From an uncultured Methanosarcinales archaeon (GTDB lineage: Archaea; Nanobdellota; Nanobdellia; Woesearchaeales; GW2011-AR15), in contig CAZEKF010000001.1 in the NCBI GenBank assembly GCA_964512765.1, positions 66,366 through 130,365 of the forward strand: a stretch of DNA of 64,000 nucleotides, in the 5' to 3' direction. The notes beneath the pieces are model-generated. The model made no database searches. It was not told the DNA's origin and was given only the letters and a program-made list of their open reading frames with translations. Made by a program: the position numbers and the translations under genes. Below, in pieces: positions 18,316 to 64,000 of the stretch (the stretch's first letter is position 1; every line of letters starts with the position of its first letter).

Positions 18316-18465
18316 ATGGCACTCTGTCCGCACTGTAAAAAAGAATTAAAATTAAATACATTAGACAAAGAAACATTAGGTGTTGGTTTTTTTAAACAAG
18401 AGATAATGTATTCATGTCCTGTGTGCAAGAAAGTATTGGGATTCAGCAGAGGAAAGTATGGATAA
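18316..18465 (+). CDS. Small zinc-ribbon protein
   Basis: CPHCKK...CPVCKK forms a two-CxxC pair. Start placed at the internal ATG at 18316. Confidence 0.4.
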   Translation: MALCPHCKKELKLNTLDKETLGVGFFKQEIMYSCPVCKKVLGFSRGKYG

Positions 18466-19129: not shown

Positions 19130-19132
19130 TTT

Positions 19133-44996: not shown

Positions 44997-45091
44997 GATT
45001 AAATCACCTTTAACCTGAGATAAAACTTAAATGATAAATAAAGGTATCGGTGCATAAACTTAAATATAAAATGTTTTTTCCCTATTGAAGA

Positions 45092-46738: not shown

Positions 46739-48110
46739 CCTCTTCGTAATAATCTGTTATTTTGAATGAATCAATAATTGTTGTGTTGTTTCCACTCACT
46801 TGATGAGCATTACCTATCAACGCGTTTTCATGCACGTCTATAGTTACAAAGTGATAAATACCGCATTTTGCATATTTTTGTAAAAAATTTATGCTTTGCT
46901 CATGATGACGTATTCCCCAACTACAGTCTTTTAATGGACCTCCTCCTCCGCCTGTTACAATAGTATGAATGAAGGTATTTGGAAAGATAAAAGTTTGTTC
47001 AGCACCGTTTTCGGGTTTAGTTTTATGCCCATCGTCAGGAACAGCATACCTTTCATATGAATGTAAATGACCTGAAAACACCATTGTTACATCATATTCT
47101 CTGAATAAATCTTCATAAAGATTACTTACTTTGGTAGTTTTACTCTCACCCATAGTAGCTGTATAAAACGGCATGTGCATGTATACAATAATGTTTTCTA
47201 TACCCTCCATTGATCGTGCTTGTTGAAGATGATTTTTTACCCAACCAACAGGTGTATTTCTCCAATATTCGTTTCCTTGTTCAAATGAAATAAAATATGT
47301 GTTTTTGTATCTAAAAGCATAGTTTGTTCCGTACTGAAGATCGCTTGGCGAACCAGATTCATGTGTGTTTGAAGGAGGGAACAACTTAAAATTATCTCCA
47401 AGTCCAGGGTTGCTTAGAAGAGAACTAAGAAATGACCTATATTGAAGAATTCCGTCTTGTGCTTGGTCATGGTTTCCGCTTGTTGGGAAGAAAGGTATAC
47501 CGTTTAGTTTATTTGTGAAACACTGGTTAAATCTACTGTAAGCACCGCCTGACCATCCCCAGTCCATTAAATCACCAGTATGAATTACTAAATTTGGGTT
47601 AGTCTGTGCTAACAAAGAGGGTAAACTTGATCTTTCAGCACCGCCGCATGAGTTTGTTGCATACTGTGTATCTCCAACAACGCCAAATCTAAACAAAAAT
47701 TCACCGTCTAATGATTCTGCGACTAATTTGTCCACAGGATTTCCTACCCACAACTCTAGTTTTTTTGAAGCTTCTGGTGTAGGTGTTGTCATTTGCGTAG
47801 ATGTCAATAAAATTTCTTGCGTTGGTGTCATAACATCTGTCGTTGGTGTATATACTTGAGTAGGATTTAATAGAACTTCTAAAGTAGGTGTTGTTGTAAT
47901 ATCAGATGAAACCACAGTGCCTAATGTGAAATCTGTTGAAAAAGCAATTGGGCTTGGAGTGACATAAACTTGTGCTTGGTTCTGTGATACAGATGTTGAA
48001 GAAGTTACTGTGCCATAGACCCAGCCAACAGTTACAGCACCGCCTAACAGTACAAGAGATCTTACTAAACCATTTTTCTTTTTCCTACGCCTACGTCTTC
48101 TTCTTGTCAT
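46728..48110 (-). CDS. Arg-tail signal-anchored surface protein with a calcineurin-like metallophosphatase domain; C-terminal ...EEVIP tag
   Basis: MTRRRRRRRKKK plus TM. T/P-rich stalk. Metallophosphatase motifs GDTQY, GDLMD, GNHD, MHMP, GHLHSYER. Ends DYYEEVIP. Confidence 0.7.
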   Translation of the reverse strand: MTRRRRRRRKKKNGLVRSLVLLGGAVTVGWVYGTVTSSTSVSQNQAQVYVTPSPIAFSTDFTLGTVVSSDITTTPTLEVLLNPTQVYTPTTDVMTPTQEILLTSTQMTTPTPEASKKLELWVGNPVDKLVAESLDGEFLFRFGVVGDTQYATNSCGGAERSSLPSLLAQTNPNLVIHTGDLMDWGWSGGAYSRFNQCFTNKLNGIPFFPTSGNHDQAQDGILQYRSFLSSLLSNPGLGDNFKLFPPSNTHESGSPSDLQYGTNYAFRYKNTYFISFEQGNEYWRNTPVGWVKNHLQQARSMEGIENIIVYMHMPFYTATMGESKTTKVSNLYEDLFREYDVTMVFSGHLHSYERYAVPDDGHKTKPENGAEQTFIFPNTFIHTIVTGGGGGPLKDCSWGIRHHEQSINFLQKYAKCGIYHFVTIDVHENALIGNAHQVSGNNTTIIDSFKITDYYEEVIP

Positions 48111-48116
48111 TTTTAT

Positions 48117-49469
48117 TTAAGGTATAGCTTCATCAGGATCATACTCTTCCACATTTGAAGCAACATGAACATCAGATTGTAACCTTGCAACCCAGATTTC
48201 GCTGTTTGATTTTTTCAAAGAATAACTGTGCTGCTGGTCTATCTTACCATATAGTAACCATAGTTCTTGGTTCATTCTATATATTTGATTTGCAGAATAA
48301 TGTTGGAAATTACCTTCTCCATTAAGAACCCACTTACCTGTTCTGTTCCAATTAATACCGTCACTGCTATACGTCCATTCTAAATGAACATTACCTTCAG
48401 CATGAACACGATCAACGCCTTCTCTAATGTTACGTAATTCTGGTTCATAAATCCAAAGAACACCTAAATATCCATTCTGAACTTGTGTAACTGCCATACC
48501 ATAGAAATGCGTGTCTTTTCCTTCTTTATCAATCTCACTTTGGTTTGGCACAAGCACTAGCTGTGGTTCAGACCAATTAATAAAATCATCAGATACAACT
48601 CTAGCAACAGTTCTTATTCTTACACCTTCAATATTTTCTTGTCTTTTAACATATCCAACATATTTATTTAACCTGAAATCATAGAAAAAGTTAGCAACAT
48701 CGCTCCAATTTGTATATGGGCCACCTATTTGATTAAAATCAATACCATTTGTAGATTCATATGCCATAAATCCGTTGTCTCGTTTATATACCATTAATTT
48801 CATGGTCTTTGTACCATCATAAACAACAGACGTCATGTTAGAATTTTCAAATAAAATCCGTTCGTTACTCCACTCATTACCATTACCACTTTCTACAACT
48901 CTAATGCTTGACCCAGAACCCGATGCTTTATCCCAATGAGTGAAATAAAGAAAATAGTTGTCACGATTTTCTCCTTTTGGTAAAATTCCACCATACACAT
49001 ACTCGATACCTTCAAACCTGTTTCCTTCTGTAAAAAGTATAGAATTATCTATAACTCTAACACTGTTAATCCAAGAAGCCAAATCAAACTCAAGATTACA
49101 TAAATATTCAGGAGGGCATAAAGATGCTTCTATTGTATTTTCAAGTGTAGGTGTTAAGGTTACAATTGGTGTTGAAGTTAACAACACTTTTGGTGAAGGA
49201 GTAAGTATAACCGGTTGAGTAGGATCAGACACAATAGTACCATCTGCAAAAGGTTCAGAAAAAGTAGGAATTGTCTGGTTGTTGTCAGAATGTTCTTTTG
49301 GATTATAAGGTAAGATAGCAGCTATTTGGTCAAATATTGGTTCGTTAAAATCAATCTGGCTTATTACATAACCTGTGTATAAAGAAGCTCCTCCTATTAA
49401 AGCAACTGTTCCAATAGTTTTAAGGAAATTTCCTTTTCTTTTCCTTCTTCTACGTCTTCGTCTTGCCAT
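48117..49469 (-). CDS. Arg-tail signal-anchored surface protein with a beta-propeller glycoside-hydrolase-like domain; C-terminal ...DEAIP tag
   Basis: MARRRRRRRKRK plus TM. T/P stalk. W/Y/G-rich repeated blocks typical of GH32/43/130-type propellers (the fold assignment is tentative). Ends EEYDPDEAIP. Confidence 0.4.
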   Translation of the reverse strand: MARRRRRRRKRKGNFLKTIGTVALIGGASLYTGYVISQIDFNEPIFDQIAAILPYNPKEHSDNNQTIPTFSEPFADGTIVSDPTQPVILTPSPKVLLTSTPIVTLTPTLENTIEASLCPPEYLCNLEFDLASWINSVRVIDNSILFTEGNRFEGIEYVYGGILPKGENRDNYFLYFTHWDKASGSGSSIRVVESGNGNEWSNERILFENSNMTSVVYDGTKTMKLMVYKRDNGFMAYESTNGIDFNQIGGPYTNWSDVANFFYDFRLNKYVGYVKRQENIEGVRIRTVARVVSDDFINWSEPQLVLVPNQSEIDKEGKDTHFYGMAVTQVQNGYLGVLWIYEPELRNIREGVDRVHAEGNVHLEWTYSSDGINWNRTGKWVLNGEGNFQHYSANQIYRMNQELWLLYGKIDQQHSYSLKKSNSEIWVARLQSDVHVASNVEEYDPDEAIP

Positions 49470-49475
49470 TTTTAT

Positions 49476-51134
49476 TTAAGGTATTATTTCTTCATAAAAT
49501 TCATTTCCTTCGAAAATTCTATCTCGAACAACATAATATGCTGCACTACACTCAACAGGTGAGTCTGTAATGCCTTCACCAACACAACCATATTCAGGTG
49601 TTTTAAATGGAGATTTTACAGCACCTGTTATAGAAGTAGAGAGCATAAAATCCTTAACAGCATTTGCAACAGCTTCATAACACCTAAAACTGTCAAAAGG
49701 GAACCCTTCCACAGCTTGGCAACTCATTAAATTGTTTGTTAACCAAGCAAGTTGGTCAAGACTTGTGTCATAATTAAGTGGTTCCTGAAAATTTAATACA
49801 TTTATCATATATCTAACATGCCACATATGACCTAACTCATGTGCAAAAACTTTTGTGAATATTTCTTGAGACACTGTATCTCTGTTTTTCATTATAATTT
49901 CATTATAGGAAACAACACCAGAGTCTGTTGTATTTTGAAAGCTTGTAACACCAGTGTCTGAACACGTCACAATTAACGGATCATTAAATAATACATAAGG
50001 TCCAACTCTTGTAACGAGTTCTTCTGCCCAAACAGGAATTTCTTGTCTACAGTTGTTAAAAGATACTAAACCAAATTCATATGTAGGGGCTTGTGCAACA
50101 ACTACAGTCGGAGTAGGTACAAGAGGTGTGTTAGTCAAAGTAGGGTTGAGAACACCAGTTGGCGTAGCTATCGCAACTTGACCACTACCTTGGTCAGGTT
50201 GAGAAATATCTACTTCAACAAACACACCTTTGTAATCAGGATATAAACTGCTAAGGTTTTCTAAACTAGTAGATTGTACACCACCTGCTGCAGTTGAATG
50301 AATAACAGTAACACCGTTATTAGTTGGGATCGCTATTCCAACATGCGAATATTCTCTTATGCCACCTTTATCATGGTTAAGTGTCCATAGATACATTTTA
50401 CCAATTTCCATATGATTACCAATATCATCCCATTTATCAGGGTCATAACCTTGGAACTCAGTAAATCCGTCTATTGGTTTAAATATCTGAGAATTTGGAT
50501 CAATAATGTATGCAATGTTAAGTGTCTGGTCCCAACCATATGCTTGCCTTAAAACTTCGTCATCTGCAGGTCGGTCTGTTCTTTGTTGAAATGCGTCGTC
50601 AAGTTTGATATTAACTCTACTAATTGCTCTGGCAGCTTGTAACTGATACCCTGCACAGTTGAATCCAATAACATTATCAATTGTTGGTGCACCACCTGTC
50701 CAATAAACAAACGAGCCATTATCATCAATAAAACCAAAGTTCTTGTAAGGCACGCCAATGTACTGACTTGCGTCATTTAAAGCCATTTGTGCAATTTCGT
50801 CAACACTTTTACTCGTCTGTGTAAAAAATAACGTTGGAGTTGGAGTTAACATTAAAGCATCAGGCGTAGGAGTTAATGCTACTGGTTGAGTAGGTCCAGG
50901 GATAAGTGTACCATTCATGAAACTTTCAGGAAAAATAGGAATTGCTTGATTATCATCAGATTGTTCTTTTGGGTTGTAAGGTAAGATAGCAGCTATTTGG
51001 TCGAATATTGGCTTGTCAAAATCTATCTGACTGATTAGATAACCACTGTATAAAGCTCCACCTATTAGAACCAAGTTTACACCAGTCCTAAGACAACCGC
51101 CTCCTCTCCTTCTTCTACGTCTTCGTCTTGCCAT
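49476..51134 (-). CDS. Arg-tail signal-anchored surface protein with NlpC/P60-like cysteine peptidase and HEXXH zinc-metallopeptidase domains; C-terminal ...EEIIP tag
   Basis: MARRRRRRRRGGG plus TM. NCAGY (Cys) and HVGIAIP...IHSTAAGG (His) of NlpC/P60. AHELGHMWH zincin motif. Ends NEFYEEIIP. Confidence 0.6.
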   Translation of the reverse strand: MARRRRRRRRGGGCLRTGVNLVLIGGALYSGYLISQIDFDKPIFDQIAAILPYNPKEQSDDNQAIPIFPESFMNGTLIPGPTQPVALTPTPDALMLTPTPTLFFTQTSKSVDEIAQMALNDASQYIGVPYKNFGFIDDNGSFVYWTGGAPTIDNVIGFNCAGYQLQAARAISRVNIKLDDAFQQRTDRPADDEVLRQAYGWDQTLNIAYIIDPNSQIFKPIDGFTEFQGYDPDKWDDIGNHMEIGKMYLWTLNHDKGGIREYSHVGIAIPTNNGVTVIHSTAAGGVQSTSLENLSSLYPDYKGVFVEVDISQPDQGSGQVAIATPTGVLNPTLTNTPLVPTPTVVVAQAPTYEFGLVSFNNCRQEIPVWAEELVTRVGPYVLFNDPLIVTCSDTGVTSFQNTTDSGVVSYNEIIMKNRDTVSQEIFTKVFAHELGHMWHVRYMINVLNFQEPLNYDTSLDQLAWLTNNLMSCQAVEGFPFDSFRCYEAVANAVKDFMLSTSITGAVKSPFKTPEYGCVGEGITDSPVECSAAYYVVRDRIFEGNEFYEEIIP

Positions 51135-51140
51135 TTTTAT

Positions 51141-52694
51141 TTAAGGTATTAATTCATCTGGTCCGTCATAATGAACTGTTGCAAAATTTACAACTGACCG
51201 ACCACTCCAAGTATATTCGTACAGCCTACCATTAAAATAAATCTGTTGCGATCCTCCAGCGTCCATGTTAATTGCAGAATGTGCACCAATGTTGTCCATT
51301 ATTTCTGCAGCATTGCACAAAGTCATTGGTTGAGTTATCATAACAAATAAGGTATTATCATTCACGCCAATCACTGTTCTTCCTCTTGAACCCCATTTAG
51401 GAGAATGACAATCTTGTTTAATGTCAGGATAAAAATCACCGCCGTAGTTGCTTCTATTAAACAAAGTATTGTTACCAGAAACAGCGTATAATATACCGTC
51501 GAAGTTACTGTTAATGTGCCTAATTGTTACTCTACCATTTTCATAAACTACTAATGAAGGCTCTCTAGGGTTTCCAGCATGGACATGATTACGATGTACA
51601 TACGGACCTTTAGGAACAGATGAACCAGAGTCCCATTGATCAGCATTAACAGTAAAAATTACATTATGGCTGTTAGCATATCCTTGCGCAGTATTTAACC
51701 CACCAGGTGCAGAAGATCCAACATTAATGTAAGGACTACACAAATCAAATTTAAACAAAGTATAATTGCCATTATTTTTAATTATTATAGGCTCATCCCT
51801 TGGTTTACAGTTATTTGGTCCTTGTGATTCTTCTGTTGGTCTAGGAGTATGTGTCAATGTAGGGACAGGAGTTGGTGTACTAATTAGATGTTTAATATCT
51901 ATATTACCTAAATCAGGTGAATAACTTTTAACTGCATCTTTTAGATGTTGGTAAGGATAACTGTTATTTGCAAAGCGCAACATTTCTTTTTCAGCTAGAT
52001 CGTAACTGTAGTTTTCGAACTCCACCCTATATATACCAACAATCATACCTGCTCTATGCGCACCATGCTGGCAATGAACATATACCGGTTGCATAGCAGG
52101 ATCTTTAATAATTGTCATAATCTCTAGAATATTTTTGTTAAAATCATGATGTGTAGGAGATTCTGCATTCATTGGATATTTATCAATGTAAATCATGCCT
52201 CTTTGTTCAACTAATGATCGTTCATTAGGCATTCCTTGAGACAAATCTATAACTGTTTTAAATCCTTGAGCTTGTAAATAATCAAAAGCAGCAGCAGAGT
52301 CTGGTTGAGCACCTGCAGCTAACACACCAGGATCAATCCATCTTAAATGAGTTACTGGTGAACCTTCAACTAAAGGAGGAATTTCTGCTTTAACAACAAT
52401 GTCAAGCGTAGTAGTTGGTTGAGGTGTAGGTGTATGGGTTGGCATCAATGTGGGCAGAGGAGTGTGAGTTAATGTTGCTAAAGTTTCTGGTGTTATGTAT
52501 GGGTCTGTTGGTGCGTACAGTACTGTTGCAGTAGTATCTAAGATTTGCTGAGCAGACATGTTATTAACATGAGCAGATGCATGGTCCCTTGTTTTAAAAT
52601 AAACAAATGACGCCGCTGTACCAAGAATAAATAATCCAAGAGGTATAACACAACTATTTCTACGATTCTTTCTTCTACGTCTCCTACGTGCCAT
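51141..52694 (-). CDS. Arg-tail signal-anchored surface protein with a CX5R (PTP/DSP-type) phosphatase domain and a phosphodiester-glycosidase (NAGPA-like) domain; C-terminal ...DELIP tag
   Basis: MARRRRRRKNRRN plus TM. VHCQHGAHRAG is an HCxxGxxR P-loop. C-terminal AINMDAGGSQQ resembles the NAGPA/DUF2233 motif. Ends YDGPDELIP. Confidence 0.6.
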   Translation of the reverse strand: MARRRRRRKNRRNSCVIPLGLFILGTAASFVYFKTRDHASAHVNNMSAQQILDTTATVLYAPTDPYITPETLATLTHTPLPTLMPTHTPTPQPTTTLDIVVKAEIPPLVEGSPVTHLRWIDPGVLAAGAQPDSAAAFDYLQAQGFKTVIDLSQGMPNERSLVEQRGMIYIDKYPMNAESPTHHDFNKNILEIMTIIKDPAMQPVYVHCQHGAHRAGMIVGIYRVEFENYSYDLAEKEMLRFANNSYPYQHLKDAVKSYSPDLGNIDIKHLISTPTPVPTLTHTPRPTEESQGPNNCKPRDEPIIIKNNGNYTLFKFDLCSPYINVGSSAPGGLNTAQGYANSHNVIFTVNADQWDSGSSVPKGPYVHRNHVHAGNPREPSLVVYENGRVTIRHINSNFDGILYAVSGNNTLFNRSNYGGDFYPDIKQDCHSPKWGSRGRTVIGVNDNTLFVMITQPMTLCNAAEIMDNIGAHSAINMDAGGSQQIYFNGRLYEYTWSGRSVVNFATVHYDGPDELIP

Positions 52695-52740
52695 GATGTT
52701 CTCATCGACCAGTAGTAAATAGTTATATTTAAAGATAGTG
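52650..52740 (-). repeat. Copy 1 of an approximately 90-bp duplicated segment covering the leaderless promoter (TATA-like TTTAAATATAACT) and the first approximately 14 codons of the Arg-tail gene
   Basis: A 45-mer CATGATGTTCTCATCGACCAGTAGTAAATAGTTATATTTAAAGAT at 52692..52736 is identical to 54313..54357. The flanks are near-identical. Confidence 0.7.
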
Positions 52741-52785
52741 GGTTTTCAATATGATTTTACTGTATAATTGAAGAAGAATTAGGTG

Positions 52786-54315
52786 CTATGGAATAGGTTC
52801 ATCATAATTATATTCATAAGCGGTTCTAAATGAGCTTGCAATATCTATACTGTTTCCAGAAATTAAAACTAATTTTCCACTATTTGACCCATTCATGGTT
52901 GGTATTGTTAAATTAACATTACCTTCTTCATTTGCTTGAATAACATCACCAGTAAAAACATTTGTTAATATTTCATAAGCTGGTAGTCCATTGAGCGTAT
53001 AATTTCTGGATTCTTGTGTTAAATTGACTAGGTAATACATTTGGGAGTCATTAGGCCCTTGCCTGACCATGTATGCAATACCATTTTGGTTTCCATATTC
53101 TGGATTTGATCCAGTTAACCAAGGCATTAACGCATGAAGTTCATGACCAATCTCACTAATAGTATTCCATAAAGATTCGTATAAACATGGTTTATTATAT
53201 TCACATTCTGGCCAATCCCATAAGGCAATACCATTAGCACCGCCAACAATTGCTTCGTCAATTCGTTGCCTAAGCATACCTCTTGATTGATTATAATTAA
53301 AATGTGCTGGTAAAACAACAAATGTAGAGTTTGAAATACCAGATTCTTTTTTACTTGATAACTGTCTTACTGAATTAAATGTTTTTCCAGTTCCTGAATA
53401 GTTATGATAAAAGTCAGCACCCCATATATCACCTAAGAGAGTATTAAATAATTGATCAGAAGAATAACCAAAATTAGGTTGATCCATTCTGTGATGTAAT
53501 ATTAATGTGTCGTGAACTGCATTGTTATGAATTTTTTTGTGGAGCCTTGTAACTTTTTCAGATATTAAGTTCCAATTTTTAATTAAATTAGGTTCATCTT
53601 TTCCATAGAACCATAACATTGAAGGATGATTATCTACAAAATTAATGAATTCAATTAGTTCTTCAGGTTTTTCGTCATATGTGTCAAATCGAGGAATCAT
53701 CATCATGCCAAATTCTCTGGCATGTTCAAAAATTTTGGGACCATATGGCTGCATAACAATTGTGTTAATACATGCATTAGACACTCTTTGCCACACATTC
53801 ATATTATGATTTATTTCAGCATCAGGCCCAAAGTCAGGATTATCAAATGCACCAGGAGGCCTAGGTAAATAATATATTCCAAATGGAAAAAAACCTGTTC
53901 CTTGTTGAGGGAGACCGTCACCAGTAATAATTATTGAACCTTGATTTTCATAATTTATTTGATTAGCACCATTTGCATACCAGGAAGGAACACATATAGT
54001 ATTATGTTGAACTAAATCTTGGAGATTTTGGACTTGAAGGGTGGGCGTTAGGGTAGGTAATGGTGTTGGTGTTGAAGTAGGTAATGGAGTATGAGTTAAA
54101 GTTGGTAATGTTTCAGAAGTCACAATTGTTTGAGTAGGTACAAAAAAAGCTTGTTGTGCAGGAGTCGCAACACTATTTTGTTGAACAGATGCTGCAATAT
54201 TTGGTATTACTTCTTCAAACATAAAATATGACACAGTAGTACCTAAAATAAATAATCCAAGAGGCACAACACAACTATTTCTACGTTTACTTCTTCTACG
54301 TCTCCTACGTGCCAT
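52786..54315 (-). CDS. Arg-tail signal-anchored surface protein with a TIM-barrel glycoside-hydrolase-like domain (tentative); C-terminal ...DEPIP tag
   Basis: MARRRRRRSKRRN plus TM. T/P stalk. WFYGKDEPN resembles the GH clan-A NEP acid/base strand. Ends YNYDEPIP. Confidence 0.35.
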   Translation of the reverse strand: MARRRRRRSKRRNSCVVPLGLFILGTTVSYFMFEEVIPNIAASVQQNSVATPAQQAFFVPTQTIVTSETLPTLTHTPLPTSTPTPLPTLTPTLQVQNLQDLVQHNTICVPSWYANGANQINYENQGSIIITGDGLPQQGTGFFPFGIYYLPRPPGAFDNPDFGPDAEINHNMNVWQRVSNACINTIVMQPYGPKIFEHAREFGMMMIPRFDTYDEKPEELIEFINFVDNHPSMLWFYGKDEPNLIKNWNLISEKVTRLHKKIHNNAVHDTLILHHRMDQPNFGYSSDQLFNTLLGDIWGADFYHNYSGTGKTFNSVRQLSSKKESGISNSTFVVLPAHFNYNQSRGMLRQRIDEAIVGGANGIALWDWPECEYNKPCLYESLWNTISEIGHELHALMPWLTGSNPEYGNQNGIAYMVRQGPNDSQMYYLVNLTQESRNYTLNGLPAYEILTNVFTGDVIQANEEGNVNLTIPTMNGSNSGKLVLISGNSIDIASSFRTAYEYNYDEPIP

Positions 54316-54362
54316 GATGTTCTCATCGACCAGTAGTAAATAGTTATATTTAAAGATGGTGT
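54272..54362 (-). repeat. Copy 2 of the approximately 90-bp duplicated promoter / 5'-CDS segment
   Basis: See copy 1. About 4 mismatches over about 90 bp. Confidence 0.7.
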
Positions 54363-54441
54363 TTTTTATGAAAATTAACTCTTAATTAGTATCAAATAAT
54401 TTTAAATATAACGTGTCATTACTTTTTAGTAAGAATTTATC

Positions 54442-55818
54442 ATGGTAAGATTGAACATTAAAAAAAAGACTAGAAAGCGCTCAAAAAAAAGAAGCTCAAG
54501 AAAGACTTTAAGAAGACGACCTAGTTCAGGTAATTCTCTTCAAAATAAATTGTTAAATTTTATACCTTCAGAGGCACCTGCTCAACGTCCAGGACTTGAA
54601 TTTAAAGATATTGTGGGAGATCTTTTTCGAAGGGGACCATGGTACTTATTTACACCATTTGCTTTGGAATCCGGAGATGCAACTGTTGATATTAATCCTT
54701 CTAGTCCAAGTCACGGGCAAATCATTGGTGATGTTAGTCTTAATCCAGTGAATGATTATGCAATAAATCATGTTACTTTTGAAATTGGGAAATCTATGTT
54801 AAGAGGCATTGCAGCTTCAAAAGAAAATTCAATAGTAGATACAATAATGCATGTAAGTGTTTTAGGATTATCCGGTTATCAATTTTATAATGGTTTTAGG
54901 AGATTAGGACATTTTCTATGGACAAATCCTATTACAGGTATACCCATTAGATCCTTAATAGGAAATTATGCACCAGATTTAGCAATGGCAATTGACATGG
55001 AATACTTGGACTTAAATTCACAACCAGAACAGTACACACCAATGGGTTCATTATTTGTAGGTATTAGCAACATCACTAGAGGATTTGAAGATGGAATTCA
55101 AGCACTGGGACAATTATATTTTGATGTTCTAAGAATGATGGGAAAGGTTGCGGAGTCAGAACCTAAAAGATCTCTTAAAGATATTCTAAAAGATTTAATT
55201 CCAAATATGCCTAGAGAAGCACCTGCTCAACGTCCAGGATTAGAATTTAAAGATATTTTTGCAGACTTATTCAGAAGAGGACCATGGTACTTACTTACAC
55301 CGTTTGCATTAGAGTCAGGAGATGCAACTGTTGATATTAACCCTTCCAGTCCAAGCCATGGACAAATCATTGGAGATTTAAGCCTTAATCCAATAAATGA
55401 TTATGCAGTTAGCCATGTCTCATTTGAAATTGGAAAATATGTATTAAGGGGCATTGCAGCAGCTGAGAAACGTCCTAAAGTAGATTTGTTAATGCACGGA
55501 CTTGTTGGTGCATTATCTGGTTGGCAAATTGCATATGGTTTAAAAAGATTTGGACATTTTCTATGGACAAACCCATTTACAGGCATACCTCTTAGATCTT
55601 TTATAGGTAGTAATGCACCAGATTTAGCGATGGCAATTGACATGGAATATTTAGATTTAAGTTTACAACCTGAACAGTATACGCCTATTAGTTCATATTT
55701 TGTAGGAATTAGTAATATCACCAGAGGAATTGAAGATGGAATTCAAGCAGTAGGGCAATTATATTATGATACTCTTAGAATAATGGGACGAGTTGCAGAA
55801 CCTGATGATATGTATTAA
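54442..55818 (+). CDS. Basic-tail protein made of two tandem approximately 200-aa repeats of an unknown domain
   Basis: N-terminus KKKTRKRSKKRSSRKTLRRRP with no TM. Residues 44-258 and 259-458 are about 75-80% identical (EAPAQRPGLEFKDI...GDATVDINPSSPSHGQIIGD...). Confidence 0.4.
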   Translation: MVRLNIKKKTRKRSKKRSSRKTLRRRPSSGNSLQNKLLNFIPSEAPAQRPGLEFKDIVGDLFRRGPWYLFTPFALESGDATVDINPSSPSHGQIIGDVSLNPVNDYAINHVTFEIGKSMLRGIAASKENSIVDTIMHVSVLGLSGYQFYNGFRRLGHFLWTNPITGIPIRSLIGNYAPDLAMAIDMEYLDLNSQPEQYTPMGSLFVGISNITRGFEDGIQALGQLYFDVLRMMGKVAESEPKRSLKDILKDLIPNMPREAPAQRPGLEFKDIFADLFRRGPWYLLTPFALESGDATVDINPSSPSHGQIIGDLSLNPINDYAVSHVSFEIGKYVLRGIAAAEKRPKVDLLMHGLVGALSGWQIAYGLKRFGHFLWTNPFTGIPLRSFIGSNAPDLAMAIDMEYLDLSLQPEQYTPISSYFVGISNITRGIEDGIQAVGQLYYDTLRIMGRVAEPDDMY

Positions 55819-55829
55819 TTTAAAGAATT

Positions 55830-57314
55830 TTATCCAGTAATTTGATTTTGTTTGTTATGAGTTTGATTATGATCATATAACTCTTTTGTACTTAGACTAG
55901 TTGTTGCTGCAACTTGTTTAATTTGCATATGGTCATTGTTTGCCCATGAAGAAATTCTATTTACAGCTGCATGTATCTTTTCCATATCTCCTTTTGCGTA
56001 CATTCTAACACAAGCCAAACGGTAGTTAGGGGGAAGTTTTCTTAATTTTTTTTTTTTAATTTGTTTTACAGGATCTCTAAACAAACCAGTTTTCGGCATC
56101 CAGTCACCGTAAGCATATTCAGGTATTACTTCAAATACCTCTTCAGGATCAAATTCATCAATTCCTTTGAACATTCTTTCAGTCCATGTTGCTTCATCAG
56201 GCGGCATCCATGGTGCTATGGAACAGTTTCGAAACCTAGCAATTGAGTTGGCTCTAGGCTGTGGAGTGTACGGATATCCATACAATGGATAGTAAATTTG
56301 TACTTCTAATTCAAGACCACCAGACTTTTCTTTTTCTATTTCACTAACGTACCCAACTACTAAGTCACCGTCTATTTCAACAGGATTTAACTGGGAAGAA
56401 ACACCAGGAATGGGATCCCATCTTGGGTTTAGAGCTCTTCCCAAGAATAAATGATCAGCATATCTATCTCTGTATCCTTCCATTTGTGAAAGATGTCTTG
56501 GTAAAGCAAAAAGACCACCTAGATCATAAACTCTTTTTGAAAATTCAACTTCTAATTCCATCTGCCCTGTATTTGTATCATGGTCAATATCAGCAAAAAC
56601 CAAAGTACCCAAACTTCTATCAAATATTTTAGGCAAAGCATTTAAAAATTGAACTCTAGCCATTTGTTCTGGATCAAGTTGTAATATTTTAATTGCATTC
56701 AAGATGTATTTAGTAACATAGGTCATGGGACCTTGCGAAAGAATGTTGACGTTTGATATGTATGGGCCGCTAGCAAGTGCATTAATAAGACGCTTACCAA
56801 AAGCATCTATAGTAATTTCAGTCTTTACATCTCGATCTTCCACAGGATATTGTCCAATTCTGTATCTGTTTTTTGATGCTTGAATTTCTTCGTAGGCAAA
56901 ATGATGTTTGAGATGGTGAACTGAAAAATCTGTAAACAGTGTTGCAAGCATATCTGGACTTCCTGCCATTTTAAAATCTAACTCTAACTTTGCATACGAT
57001 CTGTTTGGATAAAGTTCTAACCTTGTGTCACTACCTATGTATTCTTCTTGTTTAGGAACACGTTGAACTATACTTGCAAGCCCTTTTCTAATTTTCCTAT
57101 GTTTTGTTTTGTCTAAACTAAAAACTGGTTGCTCAGATTGCTGTGGCGGAGGAGTGTCCCATACCATGATTTGAGGTTCTGTTTGACCTAAATCTGTAGT
57201 TATTTCTCCTCCTTGGGTAGTTGTTATTCTAGAATCGTTGGATTTTGGACTAGTCATATCGCATGAGATTATTAAGTTAATATTTAAATATTTGCTTTTT
57301 CTAACTACTTTCAA
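55830..57314 (-). CDS. Hypothetical soluble protein (494 aa)
   Basis: Long ORF with no TM and no recognised motifs. Island-type composition. Confidence 0.3.
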   Translation of the reverse strand: MKVVRKSKYLNINLIISCDMTSPKSNDSRITTTQGGEITTDLGQTEPQIMVWDTPPPQQSEQPVFSLDKTKHRKIRKGLASIVQRVPKQEEYIGSDTRLELYPNRSYAKLELDFKMAGSPDMLATLFTDFSVHHLKHHFAYEEIQASKNRYRIGQYPVEDRDVKTEITIDAFGKRLINALASGPYISNVNILSQGPMTYVTKYILNAIKILQLDPEQMARVQFLNALPKIFDRSLGTLVFADIDHDTNTGQMELEVEFSKRVYDLGGLFALPRHLSQMEGYRDRYADHLFLGRALNPRWDPIPGVSSQLNPVEIDGDLVVGYVSEIEKEKSGGLELEVQIYYPLYGYPYTPQPRANSIARFRNCSIAPWMPPDEATWTERMFKGIDEFDPEEVFEVIPEYAYGDWMPKTGLFRDPVKQIKKKKLRKLPPNYRLACVRMYAKGDMEKIHAAVNRISSWANNDHMQIKQVAATTSLSTKELYDHNQTHNKQNQITG

Positions 57315-57369
57315 GTGATAAAATTAGTATTATTTATATATAACTTGTAATTACTCATCGATAATAAAA

Positions 57370-58398
57370 ATGCCTAGACGTAGAAGACGAAAGAAAGGAA
57401 TAGTGTCACCTCTGTTAATAGTTCCTGTTGTACTTTCTGCGACTAGTTGTTATTTAGTTTATTCAGTTCTTAAGTCTGATGATGGTGCTCTGGCACAAAA
57501 CAATGTTGTAATGATAACCACAACCTCAGAATACACTGCTACTCCTGCATACACATTAACTGCTGTTCCACCTGAATTAACACCAGAGGCAACAGTTGTT
57601 TTACAAGATTCTCATGGAGAAGGTTTCCCTGCAATACCTGCTGAGTTATTTAGTGGGATTCCTTCTAACCCAGGGGGAGGAGCTTTAGACGGTAGTTTGT
57701 TGCCAACATCTACACAAATGCCAAGAATGGGCTCTGAAGATCAACAGCCAAGAGAAGAACCGAATAATCCACAACCTGATCTTGGGAACTGTGCTATTAC
57801 TTACCCGTTTCAAGGAACACTAGGAGTTGATTTTTCAAGAACCTCGGGACCCCATACTTATGGAGCAGCAATAAATGGGGTTTCTCAGAATGCAGAAGAT
57901 TATGGAACTGCTGCAAATGTTGATCCAGTAATAGCTGTAATCTCAGGCAAAGTACTTTACTCATCACATGCACAATTATTGATTGATGGTCCTTGTTACT
58001 GGGCTTATTATTATCATGTTGACCAAGACCTGAGATACGGTCAACAAGTTGAAATTGGTCAAGCTATTGGTAGAGAAGCTTGTAATGTTGATAGTACTTC
58101 AGCAGGTTGTAGTGGTCCTCACGTTCACCTTAATATTTACGTTAAAGCTCAAGGACGAAGTGTGCCATTATCAGCTCTTAATGTCACATCTTGGCCAAAA
58201 GGTAATTCATATAATCCCTTCCAGGAGATTAGCGTAGCTTCTGCTATAGATTTTTTAGTTGCAAAAGAAACTTTGCAGGGCTATGAAGCAACACCACATG
58301 CTTTTGTATCTAAACAATTAGCAAGCGGTATTTATGTGCCTTCTTCAAAGAAAAAAAATGTTTTAGATGAAATAGTATGGGACCAGCCAATTTTGTAA
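57370..58398 (+). CDS. Arg-tail signal-anchored M23-family (LytM/lysostaphin-like) metallopeptidase
   Basis: MPRRRRRKKG plus TM. M23 motifs YYHVDQD (HxxxD) and GPHVHLNIY (HxH). Ends DQPIL. Confidence 0.65.
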   Translation: MPRRRRRKKGIVSPLLIVPVVLSATSCYLVYSVLKSDDGALAQNNVVMITTTSEYTATPAYTLTAVPPELTPEATVVLQDSHGEGFPAIPAELFSGIPSNPGGGALDGSLLPTSTQMPRMGSEDQQPREEPNNPQPDLGNCAITYPFQGTLGVDFSRTSGPHTYGAAINGVSQNAEDYGTAANVDPVIAVISGKVLYSSHAQLLIDGPCYWAYYYHVDQDLRYGQQVEIGQAIGREACNVDSTSAGCSGPHVHLNIYVKAQGRSVPLSALNVTSWPKGNSYNPFQEISVASAIDFLVAKETLQGYEATPHAFVSKQLASGIYVPSSKKKNVLDEIVWDQPIL

Positions 58399-60632
58399 AT
58401 GGAATAGCACTTGTAACAACAGCTGCTAGGTTGTTGGTACCTGCTGCAGGAGAAGTAATAGCATCTGATACTGTAGAAAGCCCGCAACAATCTGTTTCTA
58501 TTTGCCAGGCAATTAATGATCCAGGCAGTATTGGTGGTGATCTAGGCAATTTAGTTAATGCACTGGCATCTGCAGCTAGCCAAGCGCCAAGACATGGTAT
58601 TGGAATGAATGGTGGTGTGGAAAAAATAACAGCAGACGTGTTTGGCTGCGGTGAAATGGAGTTAACTGGCAAGTTTTTATCAACACTACCTGCGGCAGTT
58701 GCATTGTACTATGAACAATCTGACATTTCTTCAATGATTTCCAATGCAAGAAGTTACCCAGGTGGTGACCCTAGCAATGAAATAAGATCTGCTGTAGTTG
58801 TTGCGTTGTCAATGACTGAAAAAGGTAGAAAGATATTATCTGATCATGGAATTAATGGAAACATTAACGATGGAGCACAATTATTAATGGCAGTAAACAG
58901 GTTTGATGGTAAAGGACACGACATTATACCTTTACAAGACGCGTATTATTTAAGAACAGCTCTTCAAAATGGTAGAATTGTTGATGCTACTGCTTATAAC
59001 GAGAAAGCAATGTGGTATTATCAACAGGTAATGTCCAGTCCAATTTTAAGAGCTACCATGACAAGGATATCGATTAGAGAATGGACTCACAGACATGGAG
59101 CACAAAGTTACTGGGTGCAAATGGGTGGACGAATTAATTATTATCCAGACCATCCATCAAAAATATTTAACAGTGGAAAATGGTCAAGTTCTGCCTATGG
59201 AAAATACCAGTGGTTGACAAAGACATGGAATGATTTTTCTAAAAAGTTTCTTAATGCTCCAGGAATGGATCCTGTTTCACAAGAGTTAGGCGCTCCTGTT
59301 TTAATGAGAGAAAAAAGAAGTTGTTTTGATTTAGTTAGAGCAGGAGATAGAAATAGTCTAACAAGTGCTTTATCAGAATTAGGCTGTGAATGGGCAGGTG
59401 TACCGAATAGCTTAGCCAGAAGTGGGTGTATTTCTGGACAAAATCCAGCTGAGTCTGGTCAAGCATTTATAGACGCTGTATTTAGTACACATCTTCAAGA
59501 AGCAGAAAATATGCAAGACCAAGCATTTAAAACATTGTCAAGTGCAGGCCATCTTGGACCTTATTTGATAGTGCCTGCATTTAATTTTCCTGCTGGGTCA
59601 GTTGTTAAACTGCATACAAGTTCAGGTATAGTTGAAGTTCAAGGTCCAATTGCTATTCCAACATCTAATTTAGGCGACTGGGCGCAAAACAATAACTGGT
59701 CAGATACACGCGCGGGAGAATATACACCAGGTAATGGTTCTATTCCAATGAGTTATGTTAAGTGGATTAATGAACCAGACATGAGGCCAGTTGTTAATGT
59801 TCCTCAAGACATTGTTGCTGCACCAGAAGATTATGTGTTAAGTGGTGGTGCATCTTCTGCACCAGGCAGTGTTCCTGCAATGCAACTTGACGACACAGCT
59901 GAGACACTTGGTGTAATAGATCAAACTAGAGTGTCATCATATGGTAAGTTTGATGTGGAGTACGATGATCTTATGACTGCGTTTATAAAATCAGATACAG
60001 AAGTTACGCTTAACATTAGATCAATGAATATGGAAACAATAATTCACCAAGATAATATGTTTAAAATTGCACTAGGTAAAAACCTTGAAGTTGAAGGAGA
60101 CAGTTTGTCCTTAATAGGTTGGGGTAATCAGTTTAACCTTGAAGTTAATCAAAATTCTGCTGTTTTACAGTTACCTCAAAGTGAGGGTTATTTTGGTATA
60201 GGACTTATTTATGAAACAAATGGTATTTCTTATATCTTAAATACCAAAACAATTTTTGAAAGTCCTGCGTTAAGAGGAGAGTTTACATTTTTCGAATTAG
60301 ATTTACCTACAATAACTGATGATAACATGCAAAACCTTGACATTGCAGCTGTTGAACTTTCATGGAAAATGTATCAAGAAACTTTTGGTATTGTTTATAA
60401 TCCAGAAGAAATTGTAGAAAGAAAAGCTGAATGGGAAAGATATTCAAGAGATACTAATCATCCAGCTAATTTCTTTTATGTAGAAGCTGTTGGTATGCTT
60501 GCAAACACACCTATTTTTGGATATAATGATTCAGGTGAAATAATTGCTCTTGAACATGTTACACAGAACATGTTATTGCCTGTTCAAACATATGAATCTA
60601 ATATTGATTATTATCAAGAAGTTATACCTTGA
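58377..60632 (+). CDS. Large hypothetical secreted/surface protein (751 aa) with a C-terminal ...QEVIP tag
   Basis: Overlaps the M23 gene by 22 nt. No Arg tail. Ends DYYQEVIP like the minus-strand family. Domains not recognised; a muralytic partner role is speculative. Confidence 0.35.
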   Translation: MGPANFVNGIALVTTAARLLVPAAGEVIASDTVESPQQSVSICQAINDPGSIGGDLGNLVNALASAASQAPRHGIGMNGGVEKITADVFGCGEMELTGKFLSTLPAAVALYYEQSDISSMISNARSYPGGDPSNEIRSAVVVALSMTEKGRKILSDHGINGNINDGAQLLMAVNRFDGKGHDIIPLQDAYYLRTALQNGRIVDATAYNEKAMWYYQQVMSSPILRATMTRISIREWTHRHGAQSYWVQMGGRINYYPDHPSKIFNSGKWSSSAYGKYQWLTKTWNDFSKKFLNAPGMDPVSQELGAPVLMREKRSCFDLVRAGDRNSLTSALSELGCEWAGVPNSLARSGCISGQNPAESGQAFIDAVFSTHLQEAENMQDQAFKTLSSAGHLGPYLIVPAFNFPAGSVVKLHTSSGIVEVQGPIAIPTSNLGDWAQNNNWSDTRAGEYTPGNGSIPMSYVKWINEPDMRPVVNVPQDIVAAPEDYVLSGGASSAPGSVPAMQLDDTAETLGVIDQTRVSSYGKFDVEYDDLMTAFIKSDTEVTLNIRSMNMETIIHQDNMFKIALGKNLEVEGDSLSLIGWGNQFNLEVNQNSAVLQLPQSEGYFGIGLIYETNGISYILNTKTIFESPALRGEFTFFELDLPTITDDNMQNLDIAAVELSWKMYQETFGIVYNPEEIVERKAEWERYSRDTNHPANFFYVEAVGMLANTPIFGYNDSGEIIALEHVTQNMLLPVQTYESNIDYYQEVIP

Positions 60633-62620
60633 GCTAACACAGAAAGATTGTCATACATTCTCTCTTTTACTTTGTGTTCATTAACACCATACAGTTCACA
60701 AAGCGGTTTTATTTTACCATACGGAATAAGTTTAACTAATCCGCATAAATCACTTGGTTTAAAGTCTAAGAAAGGTGCTAATTTTTCCAGAGTAGTTTTT
60801 AATCCTGTTCTACGAATGAGTTTTTGGACAATTGGGTGGTCATGATGACCATTGCTCATTCCTCTCATTACATCATAGACTTCTTTTGTTCTCTCTGCCA
60901 AGGGATTTTCACTTGGACTATGTTCAGGAAGTTCAGCTGAAAATTCGTCAAGTGTTTTGTAAATAGTTAATCTAATATAGTTAGTCATTATTTTTTTTCT
61001 TGCTTTTTCAATATGTTCTTCATCTATATTTAACAGCACAGATTCTTGTTCTTCTTGTGATAATTCTGTTAATGTTTCACTTACTTCAAATTCTGCAGCA
61101 GCTTCTCTCACTAAACCAACAGGAACATTTTTTAACAAAGTATATATTACTTCAGGATTGCCTCTAAATTTCGAATATTTAATCATGTCTGATCCTGAAA
61201 ATTGATAAAGTGGTAAAGACGTGTGAGCTGCATGATATTCTTTATACATGTCATCTAAACCATTTGTTTGGAGAGGACCTATTAATTGTTCAGCTAGAGC
61301 TGATCTAATCTCTGGCGGAACTGCAGTGAACATAAGATCATATTTATCTGAGTTTGTATCTAATGTTGTTCCTACTCTTCCTAATATCTCACAAAATCTT
61401 GTTAGTTCATGTTGAAGTATTTTTTTAAACTCAATGTCTGGAGGCATTTCACCAATTTTGTTTAAACTAGCATCCAAATACCATTGCCTAGCAAGTTTTG
61501 TTAGTTCTTCATAACTTAACTCAGGCATTAGTTTTGCTATTCTGGAATGTGTTCTTGCATATGTACTCGCTGTTCCTTCACTTACCATGTTTGGATCTTG
61601 GTTGAATAATAACCATGAAAATTGTATTTTAGTATCAGCAAACGGACCTTTTCTCGGATGCCTGGCTTCTTCTAAAAACAAATCATCTATACATGACGGA
61701 GGAGTATTTACCCACATAGAACTTGAATACTCTTTACCAAGATATTCTTGTGCAATAGCGTCGAATAGTGCAAGCATTGGCAAATCTGCTTTTATTCTTT
61801 CTAAAGCAACTTCTCCTATGTAACCAGTTTCTTCAATTAAATCAGCGTGTCTGTTAATCATACTAAGTGATTTTGCATATTCAACCAATGCAGGTTTTAA
61901 ATGTTCAGCCTGACCTTTAATTGATGCAATATCAATATGTTCCCAGATAGGTTTGTCAGATGCACCTGTTTCAAGAGTGTAAGAATTAACGTATTGACAT
62001 ATAATATTTTCTGTTACATCCAAAAGTCCTGTTATAAAACTATACATAGGATTTGAAGTTAAATGAATTTTTCTTAGTCTTCTTAGTAACTGATCCATAT
62101 CATTAGCTTCGTCTATTATAAAATCCAGATGTCCGAAAAAGTTACTTGGTGTAAGATTGCTTAAATTATCTTTTATGGTTCTATCTAAATTATGAATATA
62201 CATTTCACTGTCCAAAACACCGTTAAAAGATAAATTACTAAGAATAAGTTGTTCATATGTTTCATAGTTCAATAATCCTAGTCTAATTGCAAGAGAAATA
62301 GCATTAAAATTTATAGGAAAAATAGTTTTTTTAGATACACTGGCTGTGGATATAGGATCTAGTTTGCTTAGTGGAAAATGTGCTCTTGGAATGGATATGG
62401 TTTTTTCCTCATATTTAGGTATTAATTCTTCTTCAGTTAGCAAACCGCGCCATATTGTGTCTACTAAAACTAAATCAGGTTCTGGAACAAAAGGTATTTC
62501 TTCTTGAGGTTCAGGAAATAATGGTTTATGTCCATTTACCTGTTCTTGAGGTTTATAATCTCGAATATGTCTTGTACGAACTTGTGTTATTTCACGTACT
62601 CTAGTAGGTTTTTTCCCCAT
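60614..62620 (-). CDS. Hypothetical soluble protein (668 aa)
   Basis: Long ORF with no TM. Contains internal EEIP/EELIP peptides near the N-terminus. Function unknown. Confidence 0.3.
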   Translation of the reverse strand: MGKKPTRVREITQVRTRHIRDYKPQEQVNGHKPLFPEPQEEIPFVPEPDLVLVDTIWRGLLTEEELIPKYEEKTISIPRAHFPLSKLDPISTASVSKKTIFPINFNAISLAIRLGLLNYETYEQLILSNLSFNGVLDSEMYIHNLDRTIKDNLSNLTPSNFFGHLDFIIDEANDMDQLLRRLRKIHLTSNPMYSFITGLLDVTENIICQYVNSYTLETGASDKPIWEHIDIASIKGQAEHLKPALVEYAKSLSMINRHADLIEETGYIGEVALERIKADLPMLALFDAIAQEYLGKEYSSSMWVNTPPSCIDDLFLEEARHPRKGPFADTKIQFSWLLFNQDPNMVSEGTASTYARTHSRIAKLMPELSYEELTKLARQWYLDASLNKIGEMPPDIEFKKILQHELTRFCEILGRVGTTLDTNSDKYDLMFTAVPPEIRSALAEQLIGPLQTNGLDDMYKEYHAAHTSLPLYQFSGSDMIKYSKFRGNPEVIYTLLKNVPVGLVREAAAEFEVSETLTELSQEEQESVLLNIDEEHIEKARKKIMTNYIRLTIYKTLDEFSAELPEHSPSENPLAERTKEVYDVMRGMSNGHHDHPIVQKLIRRTGLKTTLEKLAPFLDFKPSDLCGLVKLIPYGKIKPLCELYGVNEHKVKERMYDNLSVLAQGITS

Positions 62621-62729
62621 TTTGCTACTAAAAAGTAATAAATATTATATAAATCTTTCCTTTTTGTTATTATTTGATAGTGGTTAAAAAAGTTAAATTT
62701 AAATATAAATTTGTTTTACAGAGGGTAAA

Positions 62730-64000
62730 ATGGCTAGTAGAGCGAAGAGACGTAGAAAACTTGTTAAGTTTGCTTTTGGAGCTATGGTACCTCTTACTGC
62801 TTTGTCATTAGGTTTTCTAGGTTACACAGTTCTTAATCCAGAAGGTGCTAAAAAACTTATAGTAAATGCATTTGATGGACTTCCTGAAATATCAATTTCG
62901 GACTTATTAGGAGATATAGATGTGAATTTGCCTAGTCTTCAAGACTTAATTCTTGGAGAAAGAAATCCTGAGGAAGGAGTGTTTAATCTAACTCTTTTTG
63001 GAAATACAGATTACAGATACTCAATAAAAACTGATTTTTTAGCAGTGCTAAGTTCTGGTGATTTAGGTGTTTCAACAGGTAATTTAAATATTTCTAGCCA
63101 AACTATCTTACTTTTACCAGAAGCTATACTAAGAGCACAATATCCACTTGTTGGTCAAGGGCCTAAATTTAGCTTATACAATGATTTTGAACTGCTTCAC
63201 GATACTAATGTGTGCATGCCAAAAGAAGATAAATTTGATTGTGCAGTTTATCCTGCAGGTACAGTGTTCTCAGGAGAAGAACATTTAGGCCAGATTCCAT
63301 TGGTAGTTACACCAAGGAAAGTATTACAAGGTCCACAATTATTAGATGCAGACGGTAATCCAAAATTTGATAATCACGTGATTTTTTCTTTTATTGATTA
63401 TGCAGGAATGGTAACTAATTCAGGATCATTCCAACTGTATGCAACACCTGAAGAAGTTTATGAATTAATGCAAGGTACAGAATTAACACTTCAGCAAGCA
63501 GAACAACAAGTAATTGATCAAAAACAACAAGCATTAGATTCGCTTTTATTAGAATTTTTTGATGAGAATGGTGCTGTAAAACAAGATGCGTTTTATGAAG
63601 ATCCATTAACCCAAGAAAAATTCTATGGTCAACAAGGATTTTGGGAAGCTATAATGGATGCAAATTTAGCTCCAACTAAAGAATCTGTACAAAAACAGGT
63701 CACGCAAGGTTATGTTAGTACAACCATGGTTTGGGAGACAGCTCCTGGTTCAATATCAGTTCAGTTAATGGATCTTGAACATGGAAATGTTAAATTTAAA
63801 AACATAATAAGAGACTGGTTTGATACTATTACAACAGATCCTAATACAGGTCAATCTTTAGAGTTCGAAAACAAAGCAATAGCACTTGATAGAGTTAGTG
63901 ATATTCCTCATGGTTTTGTAGAATGGTTTAATCAATACGTAGGCGGTCCTTTATTATATGCTGGTCCAATCGAGGTTAATAATCTTCAACAACCTGCACG
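62730..64000 (+). CDS. Basic-tail (RAKRRRK) signal-anchored protein, 3'-partial (runs off the window)
   Basis: MASRAKRRRKLVKFAFGAMVPLTALSLGFLGYTVL gives a basic tail plus TM like the island family. Reading frame open to 64000. Not in the ORF track because no stop lies within the window. Confidence 0.45.
   Translation, partial: MASRAKRRRKLVKFAFGAMVPLTALSLGFLGYTVLNPEGAKKLIVNAFDGLPEISISDLLGDIDVNLPSLQDLILGERNPEEGVFNLTLFGNTDYRYSIKTDFLAVLSSGDLGVSTGNLNISSQTILLLPEAILRAQYPLVGQGPKFSLYNDFELLHDTNVCMPKEDKFDCAVYPAGTVFSGEEHLGQIPLVVTPRKVLQGPQLLDADGNPKFDNHVIFSFIDYAGMVTNSGSFQLYATPEEVYELMQGTELTLQQAEQQVIDQKQQALDSLLLEFFDENGAVKQDAFYEDPLTQEKFYGQQGFWEAIMDANLAPTKESVQKQVTQGYVSTTMVWETAPGSISVQLMDLEHGNVKFKNIIRDWFDTITTDPNTGQSLEFENKAIALDRVSDIPHGFVEWFNQYVGGPLLYAGPIEVNNLQQPA

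Follow-up and report, generated by a model that had tools for sequence, protein, structure and literature searches.

The gene at positions 54442..55818 on the plus strand of the window (i.e., the whole stretch of 64,000 nucleotides analysed here) encodes a protein with two homologous domains that arose from one old in-frame tandem duplication and have both since been kept by purifying selection. The gene is chromosomal, its host being an uncultured, Woesearchaeota/Nanoarchaeota-like DPANN archaeon, and the encoded protein is an orphan without detectable homologue in the databases that we searched. We have high confidence in the anatomy and the evolutionary history of this protein as described below, and we firmly regard the gene as real, selected, and lineage-specific. 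The features of the locus are the following (window coordinates):

45092..64000 in the window and onward to ~65660, no strand assigned: lineage-specific island of 13 genes, ~20.5 kb
52786..54315, minus strand: divergent neighbour of 509 aa with an N-terminus reading MARRRRRR, a transmembrane helix, a Pro/Thr-rich linker, and a C-terminus reading ...YDEPIP
54345-54354, minus strand: mirrored copy of the TATA-like element listed next, 39 nt ahead of the divergently transcribed 509-aa neighbour, forming an inverted repeat with it
54401..54410, plus strand: TATA-box-like element TTTAAATATA, located 41 nt ahead of the start codon of the gene under study
54442..55818, plus strand: open reading frame under study, complete, 458 aa, orphan protein (ORF call; dN/dS between the halves)
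54442..54540, plus strand: basic N-terminal tail, aa 1-33, with 15 K/R, no D/E, and a pI of 12
54550..55161, plus strand: repeat unit 1, aa 37-240, acidic, pI ~4.9, net charge -8
55162..55194, plus strand: short and basic inter-unit linker, aa 241-251, PKRSLKDILKD (direct sequence reading)
55195..55806, plus strand: repeat unit 2, aa 252-455, acidic, pI ~5.2, net charge -6
55830..57257, minus strand: convergent neighbour of 475 aa, an orphan without transmembrane helix

Promoter, start codon, and N-terminal tail

The element TTTAAATATA is probably the gene's own promoter. Its decamer occurs seven times in the window where 1.74 occurrences are expected, with at least five copies located 32-41 nt upstream of start codons, and behaves like an archaeal TATA box; a scan for bacterial promoters and terminators was uninformative for this archaeal DNA. 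The position of the element supports a short-leader transcript from this ATG and translation of the basic tail, and no other methionine codon precedes residue 119.

The tail itself (KKKTRKRSKKRSSRKTLRRRP) has a net charge of +15 with lysine and arginine mixed over 26 residues, and is encoded by DNA with two stretches of eight consecutive adenines (54460-54467; 54483-54490). A highly basic N-terminus lacking a transmembrane helix had already been described in an earlier sequence-only reading of this locus, and both parts of that description hold: lysine and arginine are accompanied by no acidic residue, and the Kyte-Doolittle mean stays at or below 0.95 in every 19-residue window of the protein. 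The further idea that the tail echoes the basic tails of the neighbouring proteins is correct with regard to charge but not with regard to homology, given that a K/R mix instead of an arginine run makes the resemblance an analogous one. Judged from hydropathy, the protein has no Sec/Tat-like h-region, with PSSGNSLQNKLLNFIPSEAPAQRPG after the tail showing negative hydropathy, and no strongly hydrophobic or amphipathic hairpin. It also contains zero cysteines, carries an "IP" dipeptide ahead of each repeat unit (FIP and LIP, respectively), and ends in ...RVAEPDDMY. A soluble protein amid membrane-anchored neighbours is a reasonable reading.

Two domains from one old tandem duplication

A unit of 645 nt (215 aa) occurs twice in the gene, head to tail. 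A repeat search detected the direct repeat between 54561-54860 and 55206-55505 with a start-to-start distance of 645 nt at 79% identity, and a global alignment of the two units at DNA level found 495 of 608 positions to be identical (81%). Their translations align without any gap over aa 37-240 and aa 252-455 with 152 of 204 residues in common (74.5%), and the match of one unit to the other in a tblastn search (E = 1e-103) places the repeat well past chance level. The longest period considered by TRF is 500, and the 645-nt repeat was therefore missed by this program. Two back-to-back copies of an unknown domain are exactly what had been read from the sequence by eye, and even the unit boundaries proposed at the time (E44 at 54571 and E259 at 55216) proved exact, with homology between the units reaching ~7-10 residues further upstream into an L..L..(F/L)IP segment. 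Beyond this, partial homology also connects the inter-unit linker with the final part of the N-terminal tail, with a 3-residue indel between the two.

Comparison of the two units using the Nei-Gojobori method gave dS = 0.74, dN = 0.16, and dN/dS = 0.22, with a synonymous excess over neutrality at p = 3e-11 (binomial). This ratio shows that the open reading frame is translated in this frame and that both copies are under purifying selection. Along the unit, the values are distributed as follows:

aa 37-104: dS 0.79, dN/dS 0.15
aa 105-172: dS 0.68, dN/dS 0.38
aa 173-240: dS 0.77, dN/dS 0.15

The middle third of the unit is thus under less constraint than its flanks (0.38 versus 0.15), while the uniformity of dS over all three thirds (0.68-0.79) leaves no trace of recent gene conversion. 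Between the copies, different codons are used at 48 of the 152 conserved residues, and the longest perfect match is 23 nt. The exact 458-aa protein is present on 23 contigs that we examined from JGI, ENA, Logan, and NCBI (the longest spanning 262 kb), and each of the eight contig copies that were fetched, drawn from JGI, ENA, and Logan data and representing no fewer than six samples, has exactly two units and is identical to the window at every nucleotide.

The duplication had previously been called recent and the locus expansion-prone, with an assembly duplication named as the finding that would overturn the repeat, but none of this agrees with the data: a dS of ~0.74 that is even along the unit speaks of an old event, and units of 81% identity that are present in two copies on eight out of eight contigs do not behave like a hypervariable or contingency repeat locus. 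Though adjacent homologous units could in principle recombine and the island contains further tandem duplications, a recent duplication at an unstable, copy-number-variable locus or an assembly duplication is highly improbable in light of the synonymous divergence, the differing codons, the shortness of the longest identical stretch, and the constant copy number, and the assembly duplication in particular is ruled out by independent assemblies and a 19% difference between the copies that is incompatible with assembly collapse or expansion. A 197-aa cluster member (P0003) considered as an alternative allele was rejected as the chimeric end of a 2.4-kb contig, of which the last ~160 nt are GC-rich and unrelated to the window.

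Relatives and structure prediction

A word-indexed search of 5.8 billion clustered proteins retrieved only the protein itself, and when 1.84 billion representatives were searched exhaustively using HMMER and a two-unit profile, the protein was joined by a single spurious match, a transglutaminase/FN3-repeat protein (P0004, E = 1e-3) in which a 44-residue low-complexity stretch had been matched five times. Hits in Pfam-A and NCBIfam were chance matches below threshold (SBP56 with 17 bits at a cut-off of 34; PRK10687 with 17.6 bits versus 206), and neither of the two libraries revealed a helix-turn-helix or other DNA-binding domain. Similarly, we detected no toxin or enzyme domain using the family libraries, no match among PHROGs, PADLOC, or PDB sequences, and no relative in GTDB genomes, IMG/VR viral contigs, or JGI metagenome contigs when scanning these with an alignment of the two repeats. 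A single-domain ancestor was not found by synteny at 80 CDC48 loci of related DPANN genomes, and there is no similarity to any other protein of the island or the window (hhalign probabilities <1%; nothing significant with tblastn).

AlphaFold2 models are not interpretable, their pLDDT being 34 (full protein) and 40 (one unit, two-row alignment); as weak evidence, these low-confidence models hint at mostly helical domains and not at a jelly roll. Internal domain duplication is among the commonest routes of protein growth, and DPANN genomes are rich in orphan proteins restricted to one lineage. The sequence of the protein is new, but the finding is of an ordinary kind.

A lineage-specific island in a DPANN chromosome

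The window encodes archaeal SecY, aIF5B, Trm1, and CDC48. The nearest relatives of this CDC48 among GTDB species representatives come from Woesearchaeota/Nanoarchaeota MAGs at no more than 78% identity, which makes the host an unrepresented DPANN archaeon. The gene under study sits in the middle of an island between housekeeping genes: CDC48 borders one end, and the other end is followed by small ORFs, transaldolase, a protein kinase, Lon, and ribosomal protein S2. Compared to the rest of the window, the island is richer in GC (33-39% versus ~30%) and its proteins are poorer in lysine (4.2% versus 9.9%) and richer in proline (6.0% versus 3.3%). No integrase is encoded in the island and no tRNA gene flanks it, and neither the island nor any protein combining an arginine-run N-terminus with a C-terminal IP is present at any of the 80 CDC48 loci of related DPANN genomes. 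Additional tandem paralogue modules of the island share 78-87% DNA identity, and this similar degree of divergence indicates that local duplication is the island's general mode of growth, of which the duplication described above is one instance.

Eight island proteins share terminal features, namely a basic N-terminus with a transmembrane anchor, a C-terminal [DEQ]-x-I-P tail, or both. In seven of them, a transmembrane helix comes after the basic N-terminus; six of these N-termini contain an arginine run of the form M-[APT]-R5-9, while that of the 601-aa island protein shows the shorter mixed motif MASRAKRRRK. In most anchored proteins, the helix is succeeded by a Pro/Thr-rich linker. The C-terminal motif [YF]-x-x-[DEQ]-x-I-P is present in seven proteins, and six carry both terminal signatures. 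The 751-aa protein has the C-terminal signature only, and the M23 peptidase, with a C-terminus reading PIL, only the N-terminal one. Pfam domains of the island comprise Metallophos, PTP together with NAGPA (phosphodiester glycosidase), and the M23 peptidase. Furthermore, the 751-aa protein has a domain similar to lambda lysozyme (PHROG endolysin, 1e-10; PDB 1am7, E = 2e-5).

Apart from the protein under study, a transmembrane helix is also missing from the 548-aa, 475-aa, 668-aa, and 340-aa proteins of the island. The 548-aa, 668-aa, and 340-aa proteins have no match in any family library, a protein search with the 475-aa neighbour found no homologues, and a search with the 517-aa PTP and NAGPA enzyme recovered only itself and its paralogue. 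An apparent hot-spot of variation in the 475-aa neighbour was judged to be an assembly artefact, being adjacent to a 12-nt homopolymer and containing scaffold Ns.

With a M23 peptidase, a lambda-type lysozyme, a metallophosphatase, and a PTP plus phosphodiester glycosidase enzyme encoded in it, the island appears to serve the attack on, or the scavenging of, bacterial cell envelopes. This reading is consistent with previous proposals, as predation on bacteria has been suggested for Woesearchaeota with murein hydrolases (PMC9723730) and bacteria are killed by archaeal peptidoglycan hydrolases (PMC12352652). PMC9723730 also presents "vampiristic" gene sets of Woesearchaeota in which a murein transglycosylase is accompanied by the pore-forming toxin TlyC. 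The parallel to our locus is a DPANN archaeon with enzymes degrading the bacterial wall and proposed host-damaging companions, but the protein under study is no TlyC/hemolysin homologue (no Pfam or NCBIfam match) and has no hydrophobic pore-forming segment, and a clustered island with common terminal signatures is not described in the passages of that paper considered here.

Possible roles of the two-domain protein

The value of the protein lies in its context, in that its gene sits at the heart of a compact island resembling a tool kit for an ultra-small archaeon to breach bacterial cell walls. If it were an adaptor or effector of the island, the protein would provide a handle on the mechanism by which such archaea interact with partners or prey. 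As a tentative suggestion, which we favour among the roles considered here but still regard as doubtful, it could be a cytoplasmic accessory factor for the neighbouring anchored enzymes that is tethered to the inner face of the membrane by its tail. This idea is based on the gene having its own promoter, being arranged back-to-back with the gene of an anchored enzyme, and lying in the middle of the 13-gene island, i.e., on guilt by association in a single clonal population, which is weak. The protein would most likely stay in the cytoplasm, judging solely by the absence of a recognisable export signal, and its basic tail may hold it on an anionic surface, either the inner face of the membrane or a nucleic acid. 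An accessory role would then consist of the assembly, escort, or control of the anchored enzymes; the catalytic parts and C-terminal tails of these neighbours are presumably extracellular, so that a cytoplasmic partner would reach only their poly-Arg N-termini.

The most common outcome of whole-domain in-frame duplications is the single-chain form of a former homodimer, and such pseudo-dimers include the TATA-binding protein and double-jelly-roll capsid proteins. By analogy, the one-domain ancestor of our protein was probably a homodimer that the duplication locked into one chain, and the faster divergence of the middle third could subsequently have rendered the two halves non-equivalent. Like known pseudo-dimers, the protein has two homologous halves under purifying selection on one chain with a short linker, and divergence is asymmetric in part of each half; different from them, it is related to no such family in sequence or structure, and the packing of its halves is a proposal. 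If true, this would be a clean case of the old homodimer-to-pseudodimer transition in a new fold.

The neighbouring island family is built from an arginine-run N-terminus, a transmembrane anchor, a PT-rich linker, an enzyme domain, and a C-terminal Y-x-[DE]-E-x-I-P. With these anchored proteins, the two-domain protein has in common the island, a strongly basic N-terminus, and the "IP" before each unit. However, it lacks their transmembrane helix, PT-rich linker, and C-terminal IP tail (ending in PDDMY instead), mixes lysine and arginine in its tail without an arginine run at residues 3-10, and has no sequence similarity to any protein of the island.

Alternatively, the protein might be an effector that is delivered to a host by a non-classical route such as a DPANN-host cytoplasmic bridge, using its tail as a penetrating or membrane-binding peptide and its two domains inside or on the host cell. 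The tail KKKTRKRSKKRSSRKTLRRRP indeed resembles arginine-rich penetrating peptides in composition, and the gene is found among enzymes that are apparently aimed at a foreign bacterial wall in an island with an amino-acid composition unlike the rest of the genome. Fast-evolving effectors are often orphans, and among the other island proteins without a transmembrane helix, the 475-aa protein has no homologues and the remaining three match no family library. Nevertheless, we deem a delivered effector unlikely, as the protein has no signal peptide by hydropathy and lacks any toxin or enzyme domain as well as a strongly hydrophobic or amphipathic hairpin, as the family libraries identified no known secretion apparatus in the island, and as a dN/dS of 0.22 points, at least for the comparison of the two copies, to conservation instead of an arms race.

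Arg/Lys-rich N-terminal arms are also known from capsid and nucleic-acid-binding proteins of the circovirus and nodavirus type. A protein with such an arm might likewise bind nucleic acid, touching DNA or RNA with it in the manner of small-virus capsid proteins, and could either regulate the island or serve a cryptic mobile element or virus in structure or packaging. Our protein shares with these viral proteins a disordered and strongly basic arm (+15 without acidic residues) ahead of globular domains, the deviant GC content and amino-acid composition of the island suggest a foreign origin, and one island protein matches phage endolysin and tail-lysozyme PHROGs. Yet there is no viral context, hallmark gene, or detectable jelly roll: Pfam and PHROGs identified no capsid, portal, terminase, integrase, or replication gene among the 13 genes of the island, a flanking tRNA gene is missing, and no long inverted or flanking direct repeats are found within 45000-64000. 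With no relative among IMG/VR viral contigs, no helix-turn-helix or other DNA-binding domain, and low-confidence models that would be helical instead of jelly rolls (weak evidence), we view a nucleic-acid binder as improbable. Any probability beyond the hypotheses discussed here is left for something else.

A bolder and similarly improbable reading would see the island as an undescribed DPANN host-attack module with a sorting code of its own and the two-domain protein as its soluble component. On enzymes that take a bacterial envelope apart, such a code would combine a poly-Arg signal anchor with a PT-rich stalk and a C-terminal Y-x-E-E-x-I-P tag. As an adaptor of the module, the protein could grip the cytoplasmic poly-Arg tails of two enzymes with its two acidic domains, or it might alternatively be an effector that enters the host via its penetrating-peptide-like tail. 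Overall, the protein resembles an orphan built by internal domain duplication in a fast-evolving host-interaction island of DPANN archaea.

Given its common N-terminal and C-terminal signatures and its conserved gene junctions, the island is a more interesting object than the two-domain protein itself.

Composition and setting of the island

The island that surrounds the 458-aa protein (45092 to ~65660, past the window end) is compositionally foreign relative to positions 1-45000 of the window, with a higher GC content and a different amino acid usage:

Composition of the island compared with window positions 1-45000
GC: 33-39% in the island, ~30% in 1-45000
Lys: 4.2% in the island, 9.9% in 1-45000
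Pro: 6.0% in the island, 3.3% in 1-45000
Gln: 4.5% in the island, 2.6% in 1-45000

It is flanked by housekeeping genes, contains neither an integrase nor a tRNA, and is missing beside CDC48 in 80 related DPANN loci. A few kb upstream, between the genes for homoserine O-succinyltransferase and an AP-endonuclease, a free-standing 337-aa ORF (40392-41405, minus strand) carries a homing-endonuclease-like LAGLIDADG_3 domain (E = 9e-6).

Shared terminal signatures of island proteins

Eight island proteins carry common terminal signatures (window 46728-54315, 57370-60632, and 62730 to past the window end, the latter completed on contig L001 of the same locus at 18289-20094). In seven, a TM helix comes directly after a basic N-terminus, and in six of these seven that N-terminus includes an arginine run of the form M-[APT]-R5-9. 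Seven end in the tail motif [YF]-x-x-[DEQ]-x-I-P-COOH with the variants EEVIP, DEAIP, EEIIP, DELIP, DEPIP, QEVIP and DEVIP; six combine both signatures. The [DEQ]xIP motif is enriched 6-fold in island proteins, and no protein encoded outside the island ends in IP. These shared termini look like a sorting or recognition tag that has not previously been described.

Two genes on which the signatures are distributed differently lie next to each other and overlap by 22 nt in different frames:

57370-58398, M23 peptidase gene; Arg-run anchor, C-terminus QPIL
58377-60632, 751-aa gene; lambda-lysozyme-like domain at aa 234-344

In the 751-aa protein the IP tail is present, but there is no separate anchor. 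Together the two genes may represent a coupled pair or a fusion by frameshifting.

Junction cassettes and duplicated modules

Four island genes form a head-to-tail chain joined through a 61-nt junction cassette present in three conserved copies (mutual identity 74-82%):

48075-48135, minus (coding) strand, junction cassette
49434-49494, minus (coding) strand, junction cassette
51099-51159, minus (coding) strand, junction cassette

On the coding strand it reads '...ATA CCT TAA ATAAAA ATG GCA AGA CGA AGA...'. The upstream gene contributes its IP-stop, a constant 6-nt spacer follows, and the downstream gene begins with its ATG and poly-Arg codons. This arrangement suggests that the junctions may serve translational coupling or module recombination.

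The N-terminal modules of two pairs of adjacent anchored genes are duplicated:

49192-49384 and 50863-51055, module pair of the 450-aa and 552-aa genes, 78% identity
52593-52746 and 54214-54367, module pair of the 517-aa and 509-aa genes, 87% identity

In the latter pair the duplicated stretch takes in the upstream TATA region. Since the catalytic parts within these pairs are unlike each other, the island has grown by duplication plus domain swapping. The 509-aa gene also contains a 24-nt tandem repeat (54053-54110; 2.4 copies, 82% matches) that codes for part of a Pro/Thr-rich linker (TLPTLTHTPLPTSTPTPLPTLTPTL).

Homopolymers and contig ends

A stretch of 12 T (A12 when read along the coding strand) occupies ~56055-56066 within the 475-aa neighbor gene. 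Directly beside it, two ENA scaffolds of the locus (L002 and L006) show scrambled sequence or Ns that break the gene into 57 + 400/409 aa; this disruption is probably an assembly artefact, and phase variation of the gene is disfavored. A further ENA scaffold, L090 (2375 nt), encodes the first 151 residues of the 458-aa protein and then runs into ~160 nt of unrelated GC-rich DNA (~2216-2375), and its 197-aa "cluster member" P0003 was judged to be the product of a chimeric contig end. The region coding for the basic tail of the 458-aa protein itself contains two A8 runs (54460-54467 and 54483-54490).
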